Shown: piece after piece, positions 18,064-58,801 of the stretch
How positions within the stretch are numbered: position 1 is the stretch's first letter
Layout: each line of letters begins with the position of its first letter
NCBI GenBank assembly: GCA_003971905.1
Contig: RSEE01000016.1
Span: 744,001-808,000 of the forward strand
Reading direction: 5' to 3'
Length of the DNA stretch: 64,000 bases
DNA from: Moniliella sp. 'wahieum'
Taxonomy: Eukaryota
Notes under the pieces: generated by a model
The model's input: only the letters and a program-made list of their open reading frames with translations
Databases searched by the model: none
What the model was told of the DNA's origin: nothing
Made by a program: the position numbers and the translations under genes

Positions 18064-20185
18064 ATGACGCCCGCCCGCGACGATACGCCAGGTGCCTCCC
18101 TGAGCACTCTTGTCCACCTTGGCACCCACGACCCCTCCGATGCCGTCTCCGATACCTTGGCTGGACCCGGCTCTGCCATCCTCCCCCCACCCCTCCCTCC
18201 CATCACCACCGCTATCCGTCTACGGTGCGTTCTGACAACGAAGACAACCCGCGCTTGGTTGAGTCCCCTGGGCGCGATGTGGCGCGTCAGATGGACGAGG
18301 AGGTGGCCTTGGAACGTGTTCGGAGCGGGGAGAGCATCCTGACTGCCCCCAGTCTTTCTGGCCTCATGGCAGGCTGACACGCCTGCCTTCCGTCGCATCC
18401 CGCGTCCAGGCCAAGCTGCTGAACAAGGGCATGCCCGATTCGAACCAAGACGTGCAGCTGTCGCTGGAAAAGGAGATGGCGCAGCACGAAGCCGAGGAGG
18501 ATCCCAACCTAGTCACTTGGGACAGTCCCAACTCGCGCGAGAACCCACGCAACTGGCCGTATGTGAGGAAACTATTGTGCGCCACCACGGTTGCTCTCTA
18601 CTCTTTCCTTTCGCCCCTTTCTTCCTCGGTTGTCGCGCCAGCGCTCGACCAGATTGCGTTGGACCTAAACGTTCAAAACAAAGCGGAAGTCGATATGGTG
18701 TTCTCGGTCTTTGTGTTGGCCTATGGATTCGGTACGTCGTCTTGTCTTTCCCCATCCCGTCCCACGCCCTCATACCTACTGATATCGGTTGCCCTGGTGC
18801 ATGCCACTCATTCCCCGCCGCCTTGCAGGCCCCTTTATCTGGTCGCCCTTGTCAGAGATCTACGGCCGAAGACCGATCTTGGTCAGTGGCAATCTCATGT
18901 TTCTCGCCTTCAACCTGGGAACTTCCTTTGCCCACAAGGGTGCTGGCGTATCGGGCAAAGTGCAGATGATGGTCCTTCGGTTCCTCGCTGGATTCGGAGG
19001 CAGCGCACCTCTTGTTCTCGGCGGGGCCACCGTAGCCGATCTGTTTGTACCAGCCCAGCGAGGGACAGCAATGAGCATTTACTCGGCTGCGCCGGTCCTT
19101 GCTCCAGCTCTGGGGCCCTTGCTTGGTGGCTGGATAGCAGACCGGTTGACAGGTACCTACAGCTGGAGGGTGTCACTCTGGGCCACCTCGGGTTTTGCCG
19201 CCTTGGTTGCCACAGTGGGCTTTTTTGTGTTGCCCAGACGTACCAGCCACGGATCCTGCATGTCAAGTGCGAAAAGCTCAAGCGCCAGACGGGCAACGAT
19301 AAGCTCTACACTGCGTTTAGCACCGTAGAGCTTCCAACAAGGAACGCATTCGGCGCGCCATGGTCCGGCCTTACTTGATGCTTGGTTCAGAGGTGATCCT
19401 GATGGCGCTGGCCGTGGCCATGGTAATCTTATATGGGTGTTTCTATACTGCGCTTACCAGCTACGAACAGATCTTTAAGCATATTTACCACCAGAGCACC
19501 GTCATTGCCGGGCTCAACTACCTTGCCATCTTTTGGGGTGCTCGATTGGCGGGCAAACAGGGGGTCGAGCGGTTGATATCGTTTACCGTCGTCTGACCGA
19601 GCACAACGGGGGGGTGCGGCAGCCAGAGTTCAAACTTCCCGTCTTTATGATCGGCGCCATTCTTTTCCCTATTGGATTGATTATGTATGGGTTTAGCGCC
19701 CAATATCATGCCTTTTGGTTAGTGCCCGACATTGGTGCTGTTATCTTTGCGTTTGGCAACTTCGTCTGCATTTTGGCTCTGCAAACGTGTACGTACCTTG
19801 CTTCCCTTTCTCTTTCTCTATTGGGTTTGACTAAGGACTGACACCTTTGATGCGCTGGGGTTTGGGGGGTAGACGCTGTCGACTGCTACAGCATCTTTTC
19901 GGCCTCGGCCCTTGCTTCCCTCTGGCACGTTCGTGGTATGGCGGGCTTTGGGTTCCCGCTTTTTCGGTCTACATGTACAATGCGCTCGGGTATGGGTGGG
20001 GCAATGGGTTGGTCGCGCTCATTTTGCCATTGTGGGTCTGCCCACTCCGTTGTGTTTACAAGTACGGCCCGTGGCTCCGCCAACGAAGCAAGTATCATCG
20101 CGCGGCCATGAAGGCAGGTGTCTATAGTCTTGCACACTGTGGAGTCGTGCCGTGCCGAGCGCACCGGAGGGGGCGGGACACGTGA
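18064..20185 (+). CDS. MFS transporter, DHA1 (drug:H+ antiporter) family
   Basis: LVTWDSPNSRENPRNWP, SSVVAPALDQI, GPFIWSPLSEIYGRRP, RFLAGFGGSAP, PALGPLLGG, PEFKL, MYNALGYGWGN; GTACGT introns at ~18732-18828 and ~19788-19872; ends approximate. Confidence 0.9.
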
Positions 20186-20666
20186 CTCGGATGCGAACAT
20201 TTCAACCGTCAACGGACGCCTGGTAAAAATCAGCAGCGGAACGGGCGGAAGAGCCGGCGGGCGGGACCGGGAGGGCCGGGCGGGACCGGGCGGAATACGC
20301 GGTCCGCACGGACTCGGGCCAGCTGAGATCTTCTGGCCGGCAACACCATCGGACGCGCCCTGCTCCCCACGACGCTGGACGCTGGACGCTGAAGGTGGCG
20401 ATGCTTGTGCCCCGCCCCTCCGTTGGCCGTCTGGCCATGGCCGCGCGCACGAGCGTGCGTGCTGGCGCTCTCGCCGCTCCCCGCCGCCCCTGCTCTGCTC
20501 GCCCGCCCATCGCACCGCCTCCTCCTCCTCCTCGCATCGCCATCGCCATCGCCCGCGGCACCCGCTGAGCCCGACAGCCACAACTCTCTTCGTTCCGCCC
20601 CTTCTTCTCCTTCTTCTCCTTCTTCTGCTCCTTCTTCTCCACCCCCAACATCGCACCCAACCGCAG

Positions 20667-23070
20667 ATGCGTCCGTTTCCGCGCCCGTTTCCACACCCTT
20701 TCCACATCTGTTTCCGCCACCACACCCGCCCCTCCATCACCTCCCCCGCCTACGAAGCCAAAGCCGACGGTCGCCTCGACGCTTGAAACTGTCTCAACCA
20801 TCTTGCGTGCTCCTGGCCGCCTGACCCGCTCCACTCTGCAACAGACGCGTCAGGCTGCGCTTGCCCTGCAAGAGCGTACGGCTGCCTCCCGTGCCCGCGC
20901 CCCGTGCTTGGCAACGCGCTCAGCTCCACCCAGTCCTGGGTCCCGTGCTGCGTCTGCTCGTCCGTCTCTGGGCACAGCTAACGGGTGCGATTCGCGCTGC
21001 CTGGCGCGCTGCTGCTGCCCGCGTGGCCAGTCGCCCCGCTGCGCGAAACACCCAGTTGGCGCTGGCGGCCGAAAAGCAAGTTGCTGGCCGGTTGGGACTC
21101 GCTTTTGGGACCGACCGCAATCGCGCGGCAGCGGCCTTGGCCTTGGCCCTGCTGGGTGCCGCGGCGACGCTTGTTTGCCCTGGGTGGCGGGCGGGTTGGT
21201 GGATGCGTATGCGGCGCGCTTGAGCCAGCCGCCTGCGGACGGGGACGTGCCCCGGCGGGCGGGGTGTGGGCAAGTTGTCCTTGACGGGGGTGGCGACTGT
21301 GTTGTTGGTGCTTTTGGCCGCGCGGGCGGGCGGTCAGACGGGTGGGACACTCTTGTTCCAACTGGCTTCCGTTCGCACCTCCACTCGCCTTCGTACGGCT
21401 GTAGGGGAGAAACTGTTGGCAGCTGACGCGCCTTGGGCGCAAGCCCATGGTCGTCTGGCTGCGCAGGCAGCCAACAAAGACTTGGCGACGCTCTGTACGT
21501 TGGATTCCTGTTTGTTTCCTCGTGGTTGATTGGCATGGTACTGACCAGACCGGTGGCCAGCTGCCTCCTTGCAGGGCTCCGTCCTGCCTCTGGTCGGCCA
21601 GGGCGCAGTGGCAACGGGTAGTGCGGTCGCGCTGGTCTCGTCGGCACCTGTGCTGGCTTTAATTCTGGCGGTACTGGTGCCCGCTCTGAGCCGGGCGACC
21701 TATGTCTACGAACGGTTCCTCTCGCACCAGGCCGAGGACGTGGCTGCGTTGCGGCAAAGCGTGGGGTCGGCCTTGGAACATGCGTTCCCCCCGCTACCGA
21801 ATCCACATCACTTGAGCCAACCCAACGGGAAAAGGACCAAGCCGACACTGCCACGTACTTGACCATGAAGCGACTGGCCAAGAAGGAGAGGTAGCCGCCT
21901 CGTTGGCACGACACGTTGACGCGCTCGCGCAGGCCGAACGGGCCCAGGCCCAGGCGTGGGGGATCCATTCCGGTGGAGCTGGCTTACTGGGCAATGGAGT
22001 GGCTCTCGCGCTCCTCGGCTACGGCGGTCTGTTGGTCGCGCGTGGCACCCTCTCACCGGGGCACTGGTCTCCCTCTCGTTGTACACTGCTCTCCTTGGCA
22101 ACGCGCTCCCGCCCACCCGTGCGGCCTATTCGCAGACGGCCAATGGGCTGGCCGCTGCCAAACGGTTGTTTGACTTGCTGGAACCCACAGGGGGCGAGCC
22201 AACCCAGGCCCGAGCTCTCCCTGAGGACCAACCCCCCGGTCCCAACTCTTTGGTGCAGTTTATCAACGTATCTACTCGGCCCGGCGCCGAGCCCGTACTG
22301 AACAAGGCCGATCTCACCGTGCCGGCGGGGCAGAGTGCCGTGTTTGTGGTACCGCCCGGACCGAGTTCCAGCCAGGAGCGGGGCGTCGGTGTTTGACTTG
22401 GTGCAGGGCTTGGCCGTTCCCCAAGATGGACAAGTGCAGGTGGATGGCGCACCTCGTTCGCCCGGCTGTCTGCGCAAGGCTTTTGTCGCCGTTGAGGCTC
22501 TCCCCTCGTTTGGCGCGGACCAGACCATTGGTCAGGCCATTGCTTCGGGCGCCGAAGCAGGCGCACGCGTGGCGACTGACAAGGAGCTGGAACGAGCAAT
22601 CCAATGGGCTCAGTGCGACAATCTAGCTGTTTCTCCGGGTCTGGACGCCCCTGCCAAAGACCTGAGCGGTACAAATGCCTGGCGTGTCGGCTTGGCCCGC
22701 GCCTTGGTTCGTGTCCAGACCCAGACTGGCTCGGTGGATTCCAGTCCTCCCGTCCTCCTCCTCGATCTGCGTGGGGTGGAGCGGGCTGCCTCCCTAGCCG
22801 AACCCGGGGGGGAACAGGGCGCCTACCTCGCCGCGCAGGCCATTGCCGCCACTCACAAACCGTAGGGGCACCCATCTGGATTCCTCCTCGCTTGGCACGT
22901 CCAAATCCATTTGGCCTCAGCTCCAGCCGCATGTGCTTGTCCTCTCTCCCGAAGGCCAGGTGGTGCAAGCAGGCTCGCTCGACACGGTCGATCTGCCCGG
23001 CTCTGCATTCCAAACGATGCTAGCCAAGGCGCGGCTGCCTCCTTCTCCTCTGTCTGCACCGGGCCCTGAG
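20667..23070 (+). CDS. ABCB (Mdl1-like) half ABC transporter, TMD-NBD, with degenerate NBD motifs; probably mitochondrial
   Basis: Arg-rich N-terminus; TMD segments LALLGYGGLLVARGTLSPGALVSLSLYTALLG and GLAAAKRLFDLL; NBD VQFINVS..PVLNKADLTVPAGQSAVFV, GQVQVDG, LSGTNAWRVGLARAL, VLLLDL, VLVLSPEGQVVQAG. Confidence 0.75.
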
Positions 23071-23080
23071 GACCCTCACC

Positions 23081-23423
23081 ATCGTCTTGCTCTGGCGGGA
23101 CGTGCTCCGTTGTCGGGGGCCTGGGCTCGCCCCAAGCGCCAACGTTCAAGCCTCCGGGCCAACAAACGGTCGCCTTGCACACCTCGGCTCGCCGCATGGA
23201 CGCACTTAACCAGACCGAGCAGTGGAGCGTTGCGGAGGCCACTGCTGCCCCGTTACGCCCCCTCTCCCCTGCCCAGCTCGACGCGCTGCATCTTCATGCT
23301 CAGCTCGCACCACCGAGCTGGCCTGGGGCACCGCCAGCGCCAGAGGATCTGGACGAAATGTTGGCCATGTTCCATTCGGTCCAAACCAAAGACCTCCAAC
23401 CCAACGAGAAAGGCGAGCCATGA
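23081..23423 (+). CDS. GatC/GatF-like small mitochondrial domain preceded by a presequence-like linker (fused to or abutting the ABC gene)
   Basis: RLALAGRAPLSGAWARPKRQRSSLRANKRS/LHTSARR then QWSVAE..LSPAQLDALHLHAQLAPP..EDLDEMLAMFHSVQTKD..EP; pattern recalled from GatC-like proteins, not verified by search. Confidence 0.5.
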
Positions 23424-24014
23424 GGCATGAGGCGCCCAAAATGAGAAGTGAGAATATGCATTTTCTTGGACCTGGTGAGCCAAAGTGGTCGGTGGATAGC
23501 GCAGCTATGCGTGGGAGGGTGGACAGGTAGTTGAGAGGCATGGATAGGCACGATGATCGATATGATTGATGATCGATGAACGTTGAACTGGAGACGAACT
23601 ACGATCATATGGCACAAGCAACTGATTCTCTCGGCCCAATTTCGCTGTGGGGTGTGCACGTTATGAAGTCCAGATATTTTCTGCGAAAGATGGTATGGAC
23701 ATGAAGTCTTCTCCTGAGGCTTGAAGCTGGGTATGGGACTCCAGAGTGAAGGGAGAAAGAGAAAGCAAGCTGGGCCAGGCGATGGGGTAGCCAGAGATCC
23801 AAGACGTCAGCCTGGCCCGACAGCCAGCAGAAGGGGAAATGTGTTATTGTGCAACCTGTAATTCTAGCAGCCAGTCAGTACCGAAACCATACAATGGCGC
23901 GGGGAATGGGACATACTGTATCTAGCGGGGGCAAAAACAGAACGGGGCCAAAGTGGCTGGGGAGGTGAGATCGAGGATTTTGATAGTGGGCAATGGAATC
24001 GGGGCGTGTCAGGA

Positions 24015-27000
24015 CTAACACCACCATCCTTCCTTGTCCACGTTGACAGAATGCCGCTTTTCGCCCAGTGCGGGCCAGTCAGCCGCCGAGAAGGCTGGTG
24101 GGCGATGGACGCGCGCGCGGGCGTGGATGGGATTTTGTCGCGGCGGGGGCCATGCGGGGGGTCTGAGGTATCGGGGTATGTTCTGGGGCGAAGCGAACAA
24201 CCTTGGGGTGGGCTGGCGGAGCAACGGGAGCAGAGGACGAGCTGGCAGCCGTCTGGCTTCCAGCTCAGTAATCTTGCGCTTCAACTCCTCGTTCTCCTTC
24301 TGGCTGGCCTCAGCCTGAGCCTGAGCCTGCTCCAACTGAGAGCGGTCCACAAGAGTGCTTTTGAGCTGTGTCACCTCCTTCTCCATGGCGTCAAAGTGGG
24401 AACGGTACTCGTCGAGCTCCGTACGAAGCGTCTGCTCAAGCAAAATGGGTTAGTTACGTCTGATAGGATATAACAAGTCGGGCACGCACCTTCTCCGTCT
24501 CTTGAGCGGTCCTTAGTTGATCCTGGGAGGGGCCAGCTTGTTCGAGCTGCTTCTGTAGCGTGGTAATATTGGCTTCAGCCGTGCGAAGTAGGCTCGCCGT
24601 CTTGTCTGCATCCCCTGCCCGGCGAGTAGCGTCTGCGAGCTGTGTTTCCTTACCAGCCAGAGTGTCATTTTGGGTGGCCAACAAGTCAACCAGCTCAGCC
24701 AGCTTCTCGTCTTGCTCAGCGATACGGCACCGTAGCTCGGCTTGCTCGCCCACGGAACGGGCAGCGGCCATATTCTGTTCCGTGACGCGGGCATCCGCCG
24801 AAGACTGAACGTCGAGCAGGCGTAAGGCCAGTAGGTCCACCTGCTTCCGTGCCGCCGTAACCGCCGTCTCAGCAGACTCAAGGCGCCGTTGCTGGCTTAG
24901 TGCATGAGCGTTGTGCTCCTCGCGCTCGACACGCACGCTGCGCGAGCAACTTCGGCTTCGGTCAAGCTGTCCTGGATACGATCCTTGGCGTCCTGGAGAG
25001 CATCAGCCAGTTTGTTCACCCGGCCCTCGGCGGCAACCTGGGCCAAGCGAGCCTTCTCGAGTTCATGATGAGCCTCATTTTGTGCCTCCCGTGCCTTCAT
25101 AGCCAGATCACGCTGGGAGCTGACCTCCGATTCCGATTGACTCAAGCCGTTTCACCTTCAGCCTGAGCAGCAGCGACGCGTACCGACTTGAGGTTCTTCT
25201 CGAGCGACTCAACGTATGCCCGCTGGGCCTTGACCTCGGCCACAGCGCCACGGCAGACAGAATCCCTCTCCTTAAGTTCATGATGCATCGCCTCGACCTT
25301 GGCTTCCAGCACAGTCTTGGCTTCTTCCAAGTCGGACAGGCGTGATATCATCGTCTCGTCTACCGCGGCAAGTGTGTTCATCTTGGCCAAAATGGAACCG
25401 TAGGCATCCTTAGACTCGAGTGTAGCCGCGACCAGCTGCTCACCCGTCGTCCTGGCCATCTGTGGCAGCATGCGCATCCCGTCCAGCGTTTCCTTTTGGG
25501 TGCCAAGGAACTGAACCAAGCCCGAATTAGTCTTCTCCTGCTTGAGACCCAGCGGTTCGACAAGTGCGATAGCAGGCTCCAAATCCATCTTGTGGTCTTG
25601 CAAAACGATTTTGAATGCTTTGATGACCTCCTCTGTTGAAACAGCAGACTCCTTGACCGTGACGGATGATGTGGAAGGTGCGTTGGGAGCAAGAGGAGGG
25701 ATGGAACGCTGGACCATCTTCTGGTGCTGTGCGTACGACTCCTCCAGATGCTGGTTGCGTGGACAACCCAATCGTCAAACACACTCTCCGTTTGCTCCCG
25801 CACGTCACGAAGGAACTCTTGAATCATAGAAGAGACCATTGGACGAATGAGGTCGCTAACCAAGTCGGCCGTACGCTCCGCTTCATCATCGTACTTGGTA
25901 TATTCTTCCACGATCTGAGCCACGTTGGTTACCAGCAGTCCCGTAATCAGGTCCGGGTCCAGCTCCTCTTCCTTGAGACGCTCTAGCTGTGGTGTGATCG
26001 CCTTGATAACCGCCATCTCCAGCTCATCGGCAAAGGAGTCCTGGCCCTGTTGGATGAGAAGAGCCAGCCGTTCCATACGCGTCTGCACATACAACCCCAC
26101 ATCCTCCGCGCTTTGCTGGAGTGATGCAAACGAATCCAACTTCTCTGTTGCTCGCTCCATGCGAGTAACTGACAAGGCCAATGGCGAGCCGTCGGGAGGA
26201 GGACCCATGAGGGCCATCTGGATGACAGAGATGCCGGTGTTCAAACTGTTGCGCAAACGGAACCCAATAGTTGTCGCAACACGGCCCAAGCATTCGTCAG
26301 ATAACTTGGGGATCAATGTCTCCTTCTCCCTCGACTGGGACAAGATGGGACGAGCAATTTGAGGCACAGCATTGCCGAGGGCTGTTTTGAATGGGCCCAA
26401 CGAACGATCCAAAATGGATTGGACCAGCTCGAAATCAAGCTCGCCTTGCTCGTTCAGGTCGGGATGATGGCGTGGCTTGTTTGTTCCAGCTCCGGCCCTC
26501 AGGCCCATTGTCCAGATCATCTTGTTGTCCTAGCTCATTCCAGGTAGGGGGCGCATCGGATCCAAGTTCGACCATCCGCCCCGTTTCGTGCGGCAGATCA
26601 CGGCGACCGGGCCACCGGACTAGACCAGACGGGTCCATGGCCGAATGCATCTCGCGGACCAACTTATCCACCCACACATCCACACTCGACTCAAGTCGAC
26701 GCGCCAGCTCATCCACCACATCTTCTTCCGACTCGTCCAAGCCGCCGGTCGAATCCGTATCTTCGTCCCCGCCGTCTGACCTGACCGAAGTCGTCCGGCT
26801 CGCCACGCTCCCGCCCTCCAAAGCCCAGCCATGAGTTCCAACAGAAAGATGGGCAGTATCGGGAGGCGCCAACGCGTGCTTGACTGCCTCCGTACCTGAC
26901 ACGGGGGTAACAGAAGAGTCAGACTCACATCCGGGGCTTCGGATGGTGGTGACTTTGCCTTGTCCTTATTGCCCGCCTCTGGTAAAGTGCCCGTCTGCTC

Positions 27001-49248: not shown

Positions 49249-50628
49249 ATGCAGCTCACTACCTTGTTCTCCTTCGCCGTCTCGGCTGCCACGCTGGTCT
49301 CGGCTGGCAGCCTGTCGAAACCGCAACTGGCACGCAAACATGCTGCCCGCCGCTCCGACAACACTTATACTCCAGGGCCTGGTCACTGGAACAAGACGAC
49401 GCCTCTGGCCTACCCCAAGTGGACGTGGGGGAAAAACTCTAGCGATGTTATGTACGGCGTCAACCTGGGCAACTACTTTGTCCTAGAACAATGGATGGAT
49501 GCGGCCTGGTTCAACCAAACTGCCCCGGGCGCAGAGGATATGTGGCACTTTATCAAGTCGTTGGGGTCAACCAAGGCGATCGAGGTGCTGGAACAGCACT
49601 ACGATACCTGGATCAGCGAGGCTGCTGTCCAACGCATGTATGAAGCCGGTATCAATACCGTCCGTATCGGCATGGGCTACTGGTCTTGGATGAAGACGGA
49701 CAGTGATGAACCGTACGTATTGCCTCTCATATGATGCTTTGGGGTGGTAAAACTGGCATCTGACATTTCACTGCGGTGCTCTCAGCTACGTGTATGCCAA
49801 CGATCTCTATTACCTTGAGCGTCTGTTGGGTTGGTTGTACGACCGCGGGATGTACGCCATGATTGATATGCACGCGATGCCGGGCGGGCAAAATGGGGGT
49901 CCCACCGGTGGGCACAACACAGCCCACTACAGTTTCTTTACCGATGCCAACCAGCACCGGGGCGACCACGTGATTAACTCGGTGGCTGACTATATCCAGA
50001 GCAGCAAGTATGGCAACGTCGTTTCCTCCGTCCTGGTAGTCAACGAGCCTTGCGGCAGTACCGCCTGCGCAGGCCAAACCGGTACGAAGGACCAGGGCAA
50101 GGTCCTGGCGCAATTTTACGAGCGTTCTTACAAGTCGCTGAGCAAGCGCCAGATTCCCATGGTTTTCCACCATGGCTGGGTCAAGGATCACCTGCTGGGT
50201 TGGTTGGACTTTGTCAAGGGCAAAGATCCCAGCCTACTCATTGGTTCGGACAACCCTTATCCCGGGGGCTTCTCCGCTGGCCATTCGACCAACAAGACTG
50301 AAGTCCTTGACAAGGTCTGCGGCTATGCCAAGCAATACTCCGAGTACCCTGTCCCCGTCGTCGCTACCGAGTTTTCCATGGTCAACTCCATCTCCGACCC
50401 CAACTTCAACGCGGAATATTACAAGGCGCAAGTAGCAAACTACGCCAAAGCAGCCGGCAGCGCGTTTTGGTCCTACCGTGTTCGGCCAACTACGACGCTG
50501 TTCAATGGTCCTGGACCGCCGCTTTGAACCGGGGCATGATCCCCAAGCCCAACAGTACCCACCGCAGTCGCGCTGCAGCCAAGAAATTCATCGCCTCCTG
50601 GACCGATGCGTACCAATGCGAGTTTTAA
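49249..50628 (+). CDS. Secreted GH5 exo-beta-1,3-glucanase-like glycoside hydrolase
   Basis: Signal peptide; GVNLGNYFVLEQWM, HYDTWISE, GINTVRIGMGYW, IDMHAMPGGQNG, acid/base VNEP, nucleophile ATEFS, GSAFWSY; intron ~49712-49785; probable true stop 50626-50628 after a frameshift. Confidence 0.9.
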
Positions 50629-56924: not shown

Positions 56925-56985
56925 GACGTAGCGTTTCCCTGTCCCAGCTTTAAGCTTTGTCAATGATATGGATGAAGAGTAGAGA
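56925..56985 (+). mobile_element. Copy 5: about 60-bp terminal fragment, inverted relative to copy 4
   Basis: GACGTAGCGTTTCCCTGTCCCAGCTTTAAGCTTTGTCAATGATATGGATG is the reverse complement of the 55655-55701 terminus. Confidence 0.8.
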
Positions 56986-57263
56986 TGCATAGCGCTTTTC
57001 CCATTTTAATATATAGAGTAGAGATAGCCCTGACGGATGACCGCCAATTCGTGGACCACGAGAAGGAGCGAGAGCATCGAGAATAAACGAGCGCAGAATA
57101 AGACATGGAGCAAAAAAGGCGTACTGATTGTTCACCATAGGGGGGAAGAGCGAGAGAGGGCGCGAAACACAAACTTGAAGCAGTCGTGGGAGGGGAATCA
57201 TTAATCATTATAGATGTGGCGATATGTGTACGATAGTGAGGTACTCGCACTGATGAGATGTTA

Positions 57264-58801
57264 CTAAGTCGTCTTCTTAGGGGCGGACCGGGAGGTAGGA
57301 TTCCAGTTGGAATACATGACCAGTTCACGGAAGTGGCAGGTAATGGACATAAAGTCACAGCAGTGAAGTAAGTGGGGGAGCAAGACGCCAAAGAAAAATA
57401 TGGCGCCAATCGAGGTGAACTCGCTCCGGTTACGCATTGTGATCCCACTGAAGTCATGATGCAATCATGTTGAGGGCCAAGAGCCAAACGGTGATCTGAA
57501 CCCTTCAAATGACCGGTACAACTCACGCCACCGGTGAGGTGGTGGATTAACTGCAAAGCTGGACACGAGCAAGGCAGAAAGTTGTGAGATAAAGTAAAAG
57601 AAAGCCCCCGAAAAACAAGAAGGAAGAAGAAGGACCGGCGGGAGATGACTTTGGTCTTCATCGCCGAAGGGTCGACTGTACCGTAGGCCCATACTTTAAT
57701 GAGGGGATGGCATGACGCAGCGTAAACTTGGAACCAGCCCTGGGTCCAGCGCATGCGCTGTTTAACCAATGCCATGAGCGTCTCAGGTGCCGTCTCATAC
57801 GATTGTACCTCAAGCATGTACTTGATCCGTGCACCGGAAACAATGGCACGTAGTGTCGAATCAATGTCTTCGGTAAGCATATGCTTTTGCATCCCGAGGG
57901 AGCGAAGCAGCGAGGCATTCCAATACCCGTTCGAACCACCAAACAAACCAAAGCGATGCGAGCGAGCTCGTCCAGGGTGGAACACGCCATAGATCATGTC
58001 AAACTCTGCTGCGATTAAGCGAGTGAGCCACGTTTCAGAGAAGTTGTAGATACAGCATCGACCTTGGATAATGTCCACATCACCTTTGTTGAACGCGCGA
58101 GCGACCCATTTGAGAGCGTAGCGAGAGGGGTAGTGGTCAGTATCAAAAATGGCAATGATTTCTGAATCGGATGGCAGAGAGAGGAAGTAATTGATATTGT
58201 CGGCCTTGGATGTCGAGTTGGGAACGGAAATCACATGCAGATGCTTGAAAAGTGTTGTCATCTCTTGCAGCTCCGTCTCGAGAGGTTCAATAGGCTTGGG
58301 AGTGTTGTATACCACATTTATTCGCAAGCGTGAAGTTGGGTAGTCAAGCTGGGTCAAGGCATAACGGATCTGCCTCTTGATGATGTATTGCTCATTGGGA
58401 AGGTAGGCAACAAGCACGATGTCCATCTTGGGGCATTTGTGCTCATTCTCCTTTCCATCCAAGTCCGGGAAGCCAACCTTGGCGACTTTGCGACGAGCCC
58501 GCCGAGACTCAATATTAGGCCGGATGGAGGCAGTGGCTTCACCGAGGACAGCGATGACAACAAATGTCTGGATCCAATGTAAGCATACCACAGCCCCGCG
58601 TTGAGCGATGCCGGGATAAGGATGTAGAAGAAGAGGCTGGAAACAAAGTACGTGACCATCAACGTGAGAGGGGTCCCTGCAAAGACGCAGTCACGTTAGC
58701 GTAGTCCAAGCAAAGAACTCCATATGGGGTGCACCACACATACATCCAATGATCCATGTTGATGCACGTTCAAACGAAGGAAGGCCCACCAGGGATGTCA
58801 T
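57264..58801 (-). CDS. Processive membrane GT2 glycosyltransferase (cellulose-synthase-like)
   Basis: N-terminal TM helices; DIVLVAYLPNE, SKADNIN, IFDTDH, LFGGSNGYW, LTEDID, KQRMRWTQGW (D,D,D,QxxRW); C-terminal TMs; intron ~58677-58744. Confidence 0.9.

Follow-up and report, generated by a model that had tools for sequence, protein, structure and literature searches.

A predicted ABCB-type half-transporter that lacks the ATPase motifs and carries a conserved C-terminal tail in Moniliella sp. 'wahieum'

On the + strand of a 64,000-nucleotide window of Moniliella sp. 'wahieum' DNA (contig RSEE01000016.1, positions 744,001 to 808,000), pieces of an ABC exporter are distributed among all three reading frames at about 20.7-23.4 kb, and the last of them runs on into a linker and a short C-terminal segment. 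Does this locus encode one protein, and what is the segment at its end? The original prediction had read the locus as a degenerate mitochondrial ABC transporter joined through an internal presequence to a domain like GatC or GatF, the small subunit of mitochondrial Glu-tRNA(Gln) amidotransferase, in one tandem precursor. The analysis of this window, which is GC-rich eukaryotic DNA with short, fungal-type introns, points instead to a single gene for an ABC-fold membrane protein that would function without an ATPase cycle of its own. The tail would be a conserved module that stays attached at the C terminus, on the side of the nucleotide-binding domain (NBD), and we consider this reading the probable one.

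When the NBD piece of the window was used as a query among longer proteins, the sole relative found was P0001, a protein of 643 amino acids from one contig, with 56% identity and an E-value of 8e-44. P0001 is one uninterrupted open reading frame (ORF), which starts within the membrane domain and leads through the NBD and the linker (…HHHHLDLAGLRSSSGPFPPRPSPAVKPQRGQQTITFHSSAIRRDPD…) into the tail (…EAWSVASATAAA…LAASEIESLHLASYLAPPGWPSAPAAPEGLDEMAAMFDSVRERDQ…) and to the stop. In the window, one gene on the + strand with one intron is proposed for approximately 20667-23423, and its parts are the following.

20667..21496, + strand: putative first exon, with a basic, hydroxyl- and proline-rich N-terminal extension (about 150 codons) and then the first transmembrane helices
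21497..21570, + strand: putative intron, with a GTACGT donor, a TACTGAC branch site and a CAG acceptor, from reading of the letters
21571..22249, + strand: second exon, membrane-domain part, with the later transmembrane helices and the coupling region
22250..23031, + strand: degenerate NBD, from a sub-cut-off Pfam ABC_tran match and the alignment to P0001 and ABCB9
23032..23195, + strand: linker rich in Pro, Ser, Ala and Arg (...PEDPHHRLALAGRAPLSGAWARP / APTFKPPGQQTVALHTSARR), with the last frame break inside
23100..23135, + strand: interval of the last one-base deletion, from the frame-aware alignment to P0001, which joins the frame of the NBD and linker to that of the tail
23196..23423, + strand: conserved C-terminal tail, 75 codons plus the TGA stop at 23421-23423
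near 21786, 21887, 22051, 22359, 22385, 22852 and 22884, + strand: seven further single-base breaks, each with one base missing in the window

P0001 was aligned to window positions 21480-23440 by a frame-aware method. The two were co-linear over 21545-23420 at the cost of eight frame changes, and the nine in-frame pieces of the window that resulted contained no stop codon in about 620 codons. The membrane domain was the best-conserved part of the protein, with 158 of the 206 residues aligned to P0001 residues 1-215 being identical (77%), compared with 144 of 268 aligned residues (54%) in the NBD. Identity was 30/62 aligned residues in the linker (P0001 residues 498-565) and 34/64 in the tail (residues 566-632). 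Moreover, all the gaps in the linker and tail were in frame, and the stops of the two sequences aligned within two residues. A word-based protein search with P0001 residues 280-643 returned nothing but P0001 itself, and a metagenome scan with P0001 found no relatives. The metagenome locus L153, a single match to the membrane piece, was rejected as a relative, the best E-value of tblastn with P0001 there being 1.4.

The family of the encoded protein was assessed on both sequences. For P0001, Pfam ABC_membrane was matched with an E-value of 3.8e-5 (24 bits against a cut-off of 28), the best NCBIfam model was TIGR00958 (E 1.4e-11, below its cut-off), and the best solved chains were ABCB9 (E 3.5e-8) and the mitochondrial ABCB10 (E 4.4e-8). 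In the ESM Atlas, P0001 reached 0.95 to clusters that carry ABC_tran and ABC_membrane. In the window, Pfam ABC_tran was matched at 22302-22862 with an E-value of 7e-4, again below the cut-off. The encoded protein, as read here, is thus a very divergent ABCB-type half-transporter, for which homology is found at the superfamily level and every curated cut-off is missed. Its fold would be that of a type IV exporter in which the membrane domain precedes the NBD.

The first exon rests on a different kind of reading. Its start (ATG 20667) and its reading path are uncertain; no relative covers it, and its frame changes were read by eye. A weak match to Pfam ABC_membrane (E 0.012, profile positions 40-94) lies at 21224-21526, and over 20667-21130 there are 16-26 Arg plus Lys against 2-7 Asp plus Glu in every frame. 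The co-linear match to P0001 starts at 21545-21554, and the 'ASLQ' on the 3' side of the intron acceptor is conserved.

A functional ABC ATPase carries a Walker A motif (GxxGxGK[ST]), an LSGGQ signature and a Walker B motif of the form hhhhDE with the catalytic Glu. Walker A is missing in both species: the ABCB9 sequence GPSGSGKSS aligns to VPSTPRELEPGVGPS in P0001 and to VPP/TEFQPGAG/S in the window, neither with a Lys-Ser/Thr pair, and the exact window reading is less certain here as the stretch holds two of the inferred deletions. The signature is missing as well, the corresponding sequences being NTASANWRVGLARAL in P0001 (TASAN) and LSGTNA-WRVGLARAL in the window (SGTNA). The Walker B stretch is PVLLLDV in P0001 and PVLLLDL in the window, with Val or Leu where the catalytic Glu is expected. 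In both species, the NBD as predicted is without the residues for ATP binding and hydrolysis, and the sub-cut-off superfamily matches and the lost motifs bear out the earlier view of a degenerate ABC transporter. Because Walker A and the signature are both gone in one subunit, no canonical composite ATP site would form even with a normal partner.

With no canonical ATP site possible and the membrane domain being the best-conserved part, a function without an ATPase cycle of its own is the most likely one. The protein may act as a membrane scaffold, a carrier or a regulatory partner. The NBD is less conserved than the membrane domain, which fits a relaxed constraint on a dead ATPase domain; in ABC transporters the reverse is usual, the NBD being the better conserved of the two.

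The eight frame breaks, which fall within 1.9 kb, could be given a quite different meaning. If they were real mutations, the locus would be a decaying pseudogene, with the degenerate NBD and the tail as functionless relics. The density of breaks, the loss of the ATPase motifs and the Pfam matches, all of which stay below the cut-off, are in line with decay, and the assembly origin of the breaks is itself a deduction from the letters. However, each of the eight is a one-base deletion, with no insertions among them, and the roughly 620 codons hold no stop. Breaks of the same kind were also found in the neighbouring gene upstream, whose frame, by reading, shifts three times with no intron involved, near 19236, 19320 and 19530, each time in the sense seen in the ABC gene.

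18450-20110, + strand: gene of an MFS_1 transporter (Pfam match on 18783-19325, E 3.3e-24); one clear intron, 18733-18830

Since all 11 breaks in the ABC and MFS genes share one direction, several of those in the ABC gene lie in runs of C or G, the in-frame pieces hold no stop, and the ORF of P0001 is intact, the breaks are most likely single-base deletions of the assembly and no property of the gene itself. The original prediction had invoked a one-base correction typical of this assembly, and both genes support it. Furthermore, the codon-position GC is intact along the gene, and P0001 presents the same dead motifs in a clean ORF of 643 amino acids, from which it follows that the degeneracy would be older than the split of the two sequences and that the ORF has been maintained. 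A pseudogene is on these grounds improbable.

The breaks in the MFS gene suggest a systematic loss of bases in the assembly, with homopolymer runs often affected. Elsewhere in the window, an intact glycosyltransferase family 2 ORF of 576 amino acids (Glyco_trans_2_3, E 9e-20) lies on the - strand at 56963-58690, and a GH5 cellulase-like ORF (E 5e-5) lies on the + strand at 49751-50524. The length of the intact glycosyltransferase ORF implies that the base-loss errors are unevenly spread, and they are seemingly worse in the most GC-rich stretches. As single bases are often dropped in this assembly, its frame breaks should not be taken for biology.

The way in which the NBD passes into the tail was followed in the two frames concerned. 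The last NBD strand and helix are present at 22930-23031 (HVLVLSPEGQVVQAG...PGSAFQTMLAKA), the end of the domain reads HVLVLSPEGQVVQAG...FQTMLAKA, and the ORF that contains it (22798..23430) stays open past the NBD without a stop, as had been proposed. A second frame is open over 23070..23423 and ends at the TGA (...QQTVALHTSARRMDALNQTEQWSV...LSPAQLDALHLHAQLAPP...EDLDEMLAMFHSVQTKD...GEP, then the stop). Joining the two frames by one missing base is justified, because P0001 reads the NBD, the linker and the tail as a single ORF. The alignment places the break at about 23135, and support for frame 1 reaches at least as far as 'LALAG' (23100), which gives an interval of about 23100-23135, with the G run at 23115-23119 and the C run at 23130-23133 as candidate deletion sites. 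Frame 1 is supported through HHRLALAG...SG(AWARP) and frame 3 from (SPQ)APTFKPPGQQTV, and the supported reading of the junction is ...HHRLALAGRAPLSGAWARP/APTFKPPGQQTVALHTSARRMDAL.... The loss of one base, as foreseen, is supported, but it had been placed too far downstream, near 23173.

This shift of the break changes the linker. By hand count, the frame-1 peptide of 23136-23173, 'KRQRSSLRANKRS', matches P0001 at 4 of 13 positions, whereas the frame-3 stretch from 23142, 'TFKPPGQQTVALHTSARR', matches it at 12 of 18; half of the acid-free, Arg-rich linker described earlier is therefore an out-of-frame reading. Its basic and acid-free character stands, but the letters then quoted ('RPKRQRSSLRANKRS') do not. 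In the corrected linker, the approximately 33 residues from RAPLSG to SARR include, by reading, 5 Arg or Lys and no Asp or Glu. Two blocks are conserved, HH.L.LAG and KP..GQQT[VI]..H[TS]SA.RR, and the 'LHTSARR' of the window corresponds to 'FHSSAIRR' in P0001. The P0001 linker has 7 Pro in 44 residues, and the best 11-residue helical moment of the linker is 0.45, compared with a median of 0.53 for the protein.

Is the tail then translated as part of the ABC protein? The frame over 23032-23420 was open in 1122 of 20000 shuffles, and an open frame by itself is weak evidence, since it arises by chance this often. The codon-position GC of the tail (0.75/0.48/0.66) is close to that of the other gene pieces (0.70-0.81/0.49-0.56/0.65-0.75), compared with 0.43/0.51/0.53 past the stop, and the overall GC drops from 0.65 to 0.50 at 23423. 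On account of its conservation, its codon-position GC and the shared position of the stop, the tail can be regarded as real coding sequence. The segment of about 75 amino acids that had been noticed after the linker is confirmed as a conserved coding tail, with the 34/64 identities and the shared stop given above.

The ABC gene might still end functionally after the NBD, with the tail made as a separate small protein from ATG 23196 or from an internal promoter. This ATG is in frame and directly precedes the conserved tail, and, as the shuffles indicate, DNA this rich in GC not uncommonly keeps a frame open across the linker by chance. Against two genes, however, P0001 has an Asp at the position of the ATG, its linker is free of Met, its NBD and tail are not separated by a stop, and the linker is conserved as protein (30/62, with gaps in frame only). 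In P0001, no Met occurs from the 'QTM' of the NBD helix to the 'DEMAAMF' of the tail, so that ATG 23196 is not a conserved start. A second start had been offered in the original prediction, an ATG that lost its G at 23077-23085; P0001 reads HHHHLDLAG there, with conserved His residues, continuous with the NBD and without a Met, which speaks against that start. Two separate genes are highly improbable in our view, and from the sequence comparison we conclude that the tail is the C-terminal part of the ORF of the ABC protein.

The gene for the ABC-fold protein would accordingly end in a C-terminal extension of about 130 residues that is specific to its lineage: first the basic linker, rich in Pro and Ser, and then some 70 conserved residues in which two helices are predicted. 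The tail consists of EQWSVAEATAA and then the two helices (AQLDALHLHAQL and LDEMLAMFHSVQTK) around a Pro-rich loop (APPSWPGAPPAPE); these helices come from a low-confidence AlphaFold2 model of a two-row alignment, with a pLDDT of 49. In the ESM Atlas, the tail fell to unnamed or TPR clusters at 0.89-0.91, a recognition below the useful level. A word-based search among proteins of 64-205 amino acids gave no match to the tail at E ≤ 10. A full HMMER search with the tail returned 39 matches at E ≤ 0.001, among which P0001 alone matched in one long stretch that spans most of the query (7-93); 37 of the other 38 matched in multiple stretches, and P0014 in a single stretch that covered only query positions 4-42.

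These 38 matches were rejected as repeat-inflated, because all 11 that were inspected, P0014 included, were repeat proteins, among them some with tail-fibre-like units and P0004 with its 34-residue tandem repeat. The E-values for P0002-P0039, which go down to 4e-24, result from the summing of many repeat units; by hand estimate, a single repeat unit against the tail scores about 30 bits, the chance level in that library. The likenesses concern tail residues of about 35-65 (23238-23330), where 'PLSPAQLDALHLHAQLAPPSWPGAP' resembles the repeat unit 'KPVSTAQQTALDLKANLASPTFTGTP' of the tail-fibre-like proteins. The tail stretch 'EQWSVAEATAAPLRPLSPAQLDALHLH' resembles the exact 34-residue tandem repeat of P0004, with 15 of 32 residues identical.

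A GatC- or GatF-like identity of the tail was the central claim of the original prediction, and it was examined with bacterial GatC and general libraries. Pfam and NCBIfam gave no family at E ≤ 10 for 23070-23420, 23118-23420 or 23197-23420. As a positive control, PF02686 found GatC in 5 of 5 and in 27 of 31 bacterial genomes. No GatC-sized protein was among the 39 tail matches of phmmer against 1.84 billion representatives. In the PDB at E ≤ 10, phmmer and a two-sequence profile found no GatC or GatF chain, each returning one unrelated chain (an aldolase and an exoribonuclease domain protein). A Foldseek search of the PDB was also empty at E ≤ 0.001, but the tail model (pLDDT 49) is too poor for this to count.

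Direct comparisons were made with bacterial GatC from 31 PF02686-matched loci, 26 of which were used, as five had been mis-extracted (antisense frame); a set of 24 left out two more with doubtful starts. In hhalign, the two tails had a probability of 0.2% against the 26 GatC and of 0.1% against the 24. A hidden Markov model of the 26 GatC scored -0.0 bits on the window tail and -1.2 bits on the P0001 tail, and 43 of 500 and 333 of 500 shuffles, respectively, did as well or better.

The architecture was considered as well. According to the excerpts of PMC4027206 used here, GatC and the GatC-like part of GatF are built of helices, and the long internal loop and C-terminal strand that come next wrap around the interface between GatA and GatB. 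The protein of this study ends 10-13 residues past the second predicted helix in both species, and from 'LSPAQL' to the stop there are about 55 residues, compared with 92-100 for 24 of the 26 bacterial GatC (the other two, with uncertain starts, have 85 and 112). The tail does not have the GatC/GatF architecture, since the few residues past the second helix cannot accommodate the internal loop and C-terminal strand. Fungal mitochondrial GatC proteins have 'WSV' and 'LSAL..P' motifs that would parallel the tail; this likeness was given no weight. Taken together, the profile, sequence, PDB, hhalign and hmmsearch comparisons were negative, no relation of the tail to GatC or GatF is detectable, and the ABC-GatC polyprotein is not supported, its GatC half having fallen away. 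An ABC-GatC fusion is not described in the listed titles and abstract openings on fungal mitochondrial GatF/GatFAB or on fungal ABC-B half-transporters, a literature search that was not aimed at the fusion itself. A helix-loop-helix pattern spotted by eye is insufficient for calling GatC.

The idea of a composite precursor does not depend on GatC. If the protein is imported, the mitochondrial processing peptidase (MPP) could cut at H[TS]SA.RR and free a small matrix protein of about 75 residues or, at the extreme, a divergent GatC-like hairpin. The single ORF in two species, the acid-free linker before the tail with its 5-6 Arg or Lys in about 33 residues and its conserved RR end, the N-terminal stretch of about 150 codons that is basic in every frame, and the presence of the mitochondrial ABCB10 among the nearest solved relatives would all suit such a precursor. 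In the known cases, as far as the excerpted text of PMC8734313 describes them, the junction carries a stretch like an internal mitochondrial targeting signal together with an MPP motif. The Pro-rich linker, with its helical moment of 0.45 below the median of 0.53, would however make a poor amphipathic helix of the presequence type. According to the same excerpts (PMC8734313), a strong N-terminal presequence is required for internal cleavage, whereas the first exon is garbled here. Moreover, the lysosomal ABCB9 scores as well as ABCB10, and the second unit matches no known protein family, GatC included. We consider the composite precursor unlikely. Its most definite form would resemble Etp1: the ATPase-less polytopic ABC protein would be both import vehicle and membrane anchor, from which MPP frees a conserved matrix polypeptide of about 75 residues after H[TS]SA.RR, perhaps a new small mitochondrial factor. 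We hold this to be quite unlikely, and only at its far end would the tail be a GatC/GatF replacement too divergent to be detected. A polyprotein, if true, would be a new composite mitochondrial precursor and would matter more than an attached tail; it is the composition of the linker that points to it.

The single-gene reading with an attached tail remains the one that we prefer, and several points weigh against it. With its basic, acid-free composition and its conserved ...SA.RR end, the linker looks as an internal MPP site would, and the tail in the window opens directly with an ATG (23196), where P0001 has Asp. The family is represented by two sequences only, as the word-based protein searches (three), the full HMMER search and the two metagenome scans returned no third member; in the relative the protein alone was compared, and an identity of about 50% could partly mirror plain DNA similarity. 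The GatC tests covered bacterial GatC and general libraries, and a two-sequence profile of about 55 residues has little power. The explanation by assembly errors, the intron and the single transcript are likewise deductions from the sequence.

In the preferred reading, the tail would remain attached on the NBD side of the membrane and may serve protein-protein contact or regulation. A mitochondrial location of the protein is plausible. If the reading is true, a lineage-restricted ABCB half-transporter has stayed under selection after the loss of every ATPase motif and has gained a conserved C-terminal module. It would then be a small but clear-cut example of reuse of the ABC fold with the motor gone, of relevance to non-canonical ABC proteins.

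Two further features flank the gene. On its 5' side, 20250-20660 has 69-74% GC, with a CT-rich run at about 20595-20640 (repeated CTTCTTCTCC) and CGCCAT repeats near 20540. On the - strand, a convergent gene at 24015-26529, about 600 bases past the ABC stop, has long coiled-coil-like ORFs with weak Pfam matches (CENP-F_leu_zip, DUF4618).

Among known systems, GatC (PF02686) and fungal GatF/Gta3 of the Glu-tRNA(Gln) amidotransferase share with the tail a loose likeness only, a short Leu/Ala-rich helix, a loop and a second helix. The tail is about half as long as GatC, is without the internal loop and C-terminal strand described in the excerpts of PMC4027206, and matches in neither profile, sequence nor fold.

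The first half of Etp1 is a membrane protein. The composite mitochondrial precursors cleaved by MPP, which in the excerpts of PMC8734313 include Arg5,6, Atp25, S. pombe Etp1 and Rsm22-Cox11, resemble the present protein in having two conserved units in one ORF with a basic, acid-free joint that ends in Arg-Arg. In those precursors both halves are recognisable, whereas the second unit here is without a family match, the linker has many Pro and a low helical moment, and the case is known from sequence alone.

The order of membrane domain and NBD is common to the present protein, the fungal ABC-B half-transporters of the MPE group (S. cerevisiae Mdl1 and Mdl2; human ABCB10) and the TAP-like ABCB9. 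In contrast to these, the window protein and P0001 are without Walker A, signature and catalytic Glu, and they have the C-terminal extension of about 130 residues. Their scores are far below the cut-offs of these families, so that the likeness is at the superfamily level and no named group is assigned. As far as the excerpts of PMC2848647 go, the characterised fungal ABC-B half-transporters are all in mitochondrial or vacuolar membranes, and unclassified, lineage-specific ones exist as Group V. The novelty here lies in an ABCB half-transporter that has lost its motor and acquired a conserved tail, as read from two sequences.

ABC exporters with one degenerate ATP site, such as TAP1/TAP2, likewise consist of ABCB-type subunits with substitutions at catalytic residues. 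In these, ATP is still bound by the degenerate subunit, whose Walker A is retained, and the dimer is left with one consensus site. The subunit encoded in the window, in contrast, would have lost both Walker A and the signature, so that neither composite site would be canonical.

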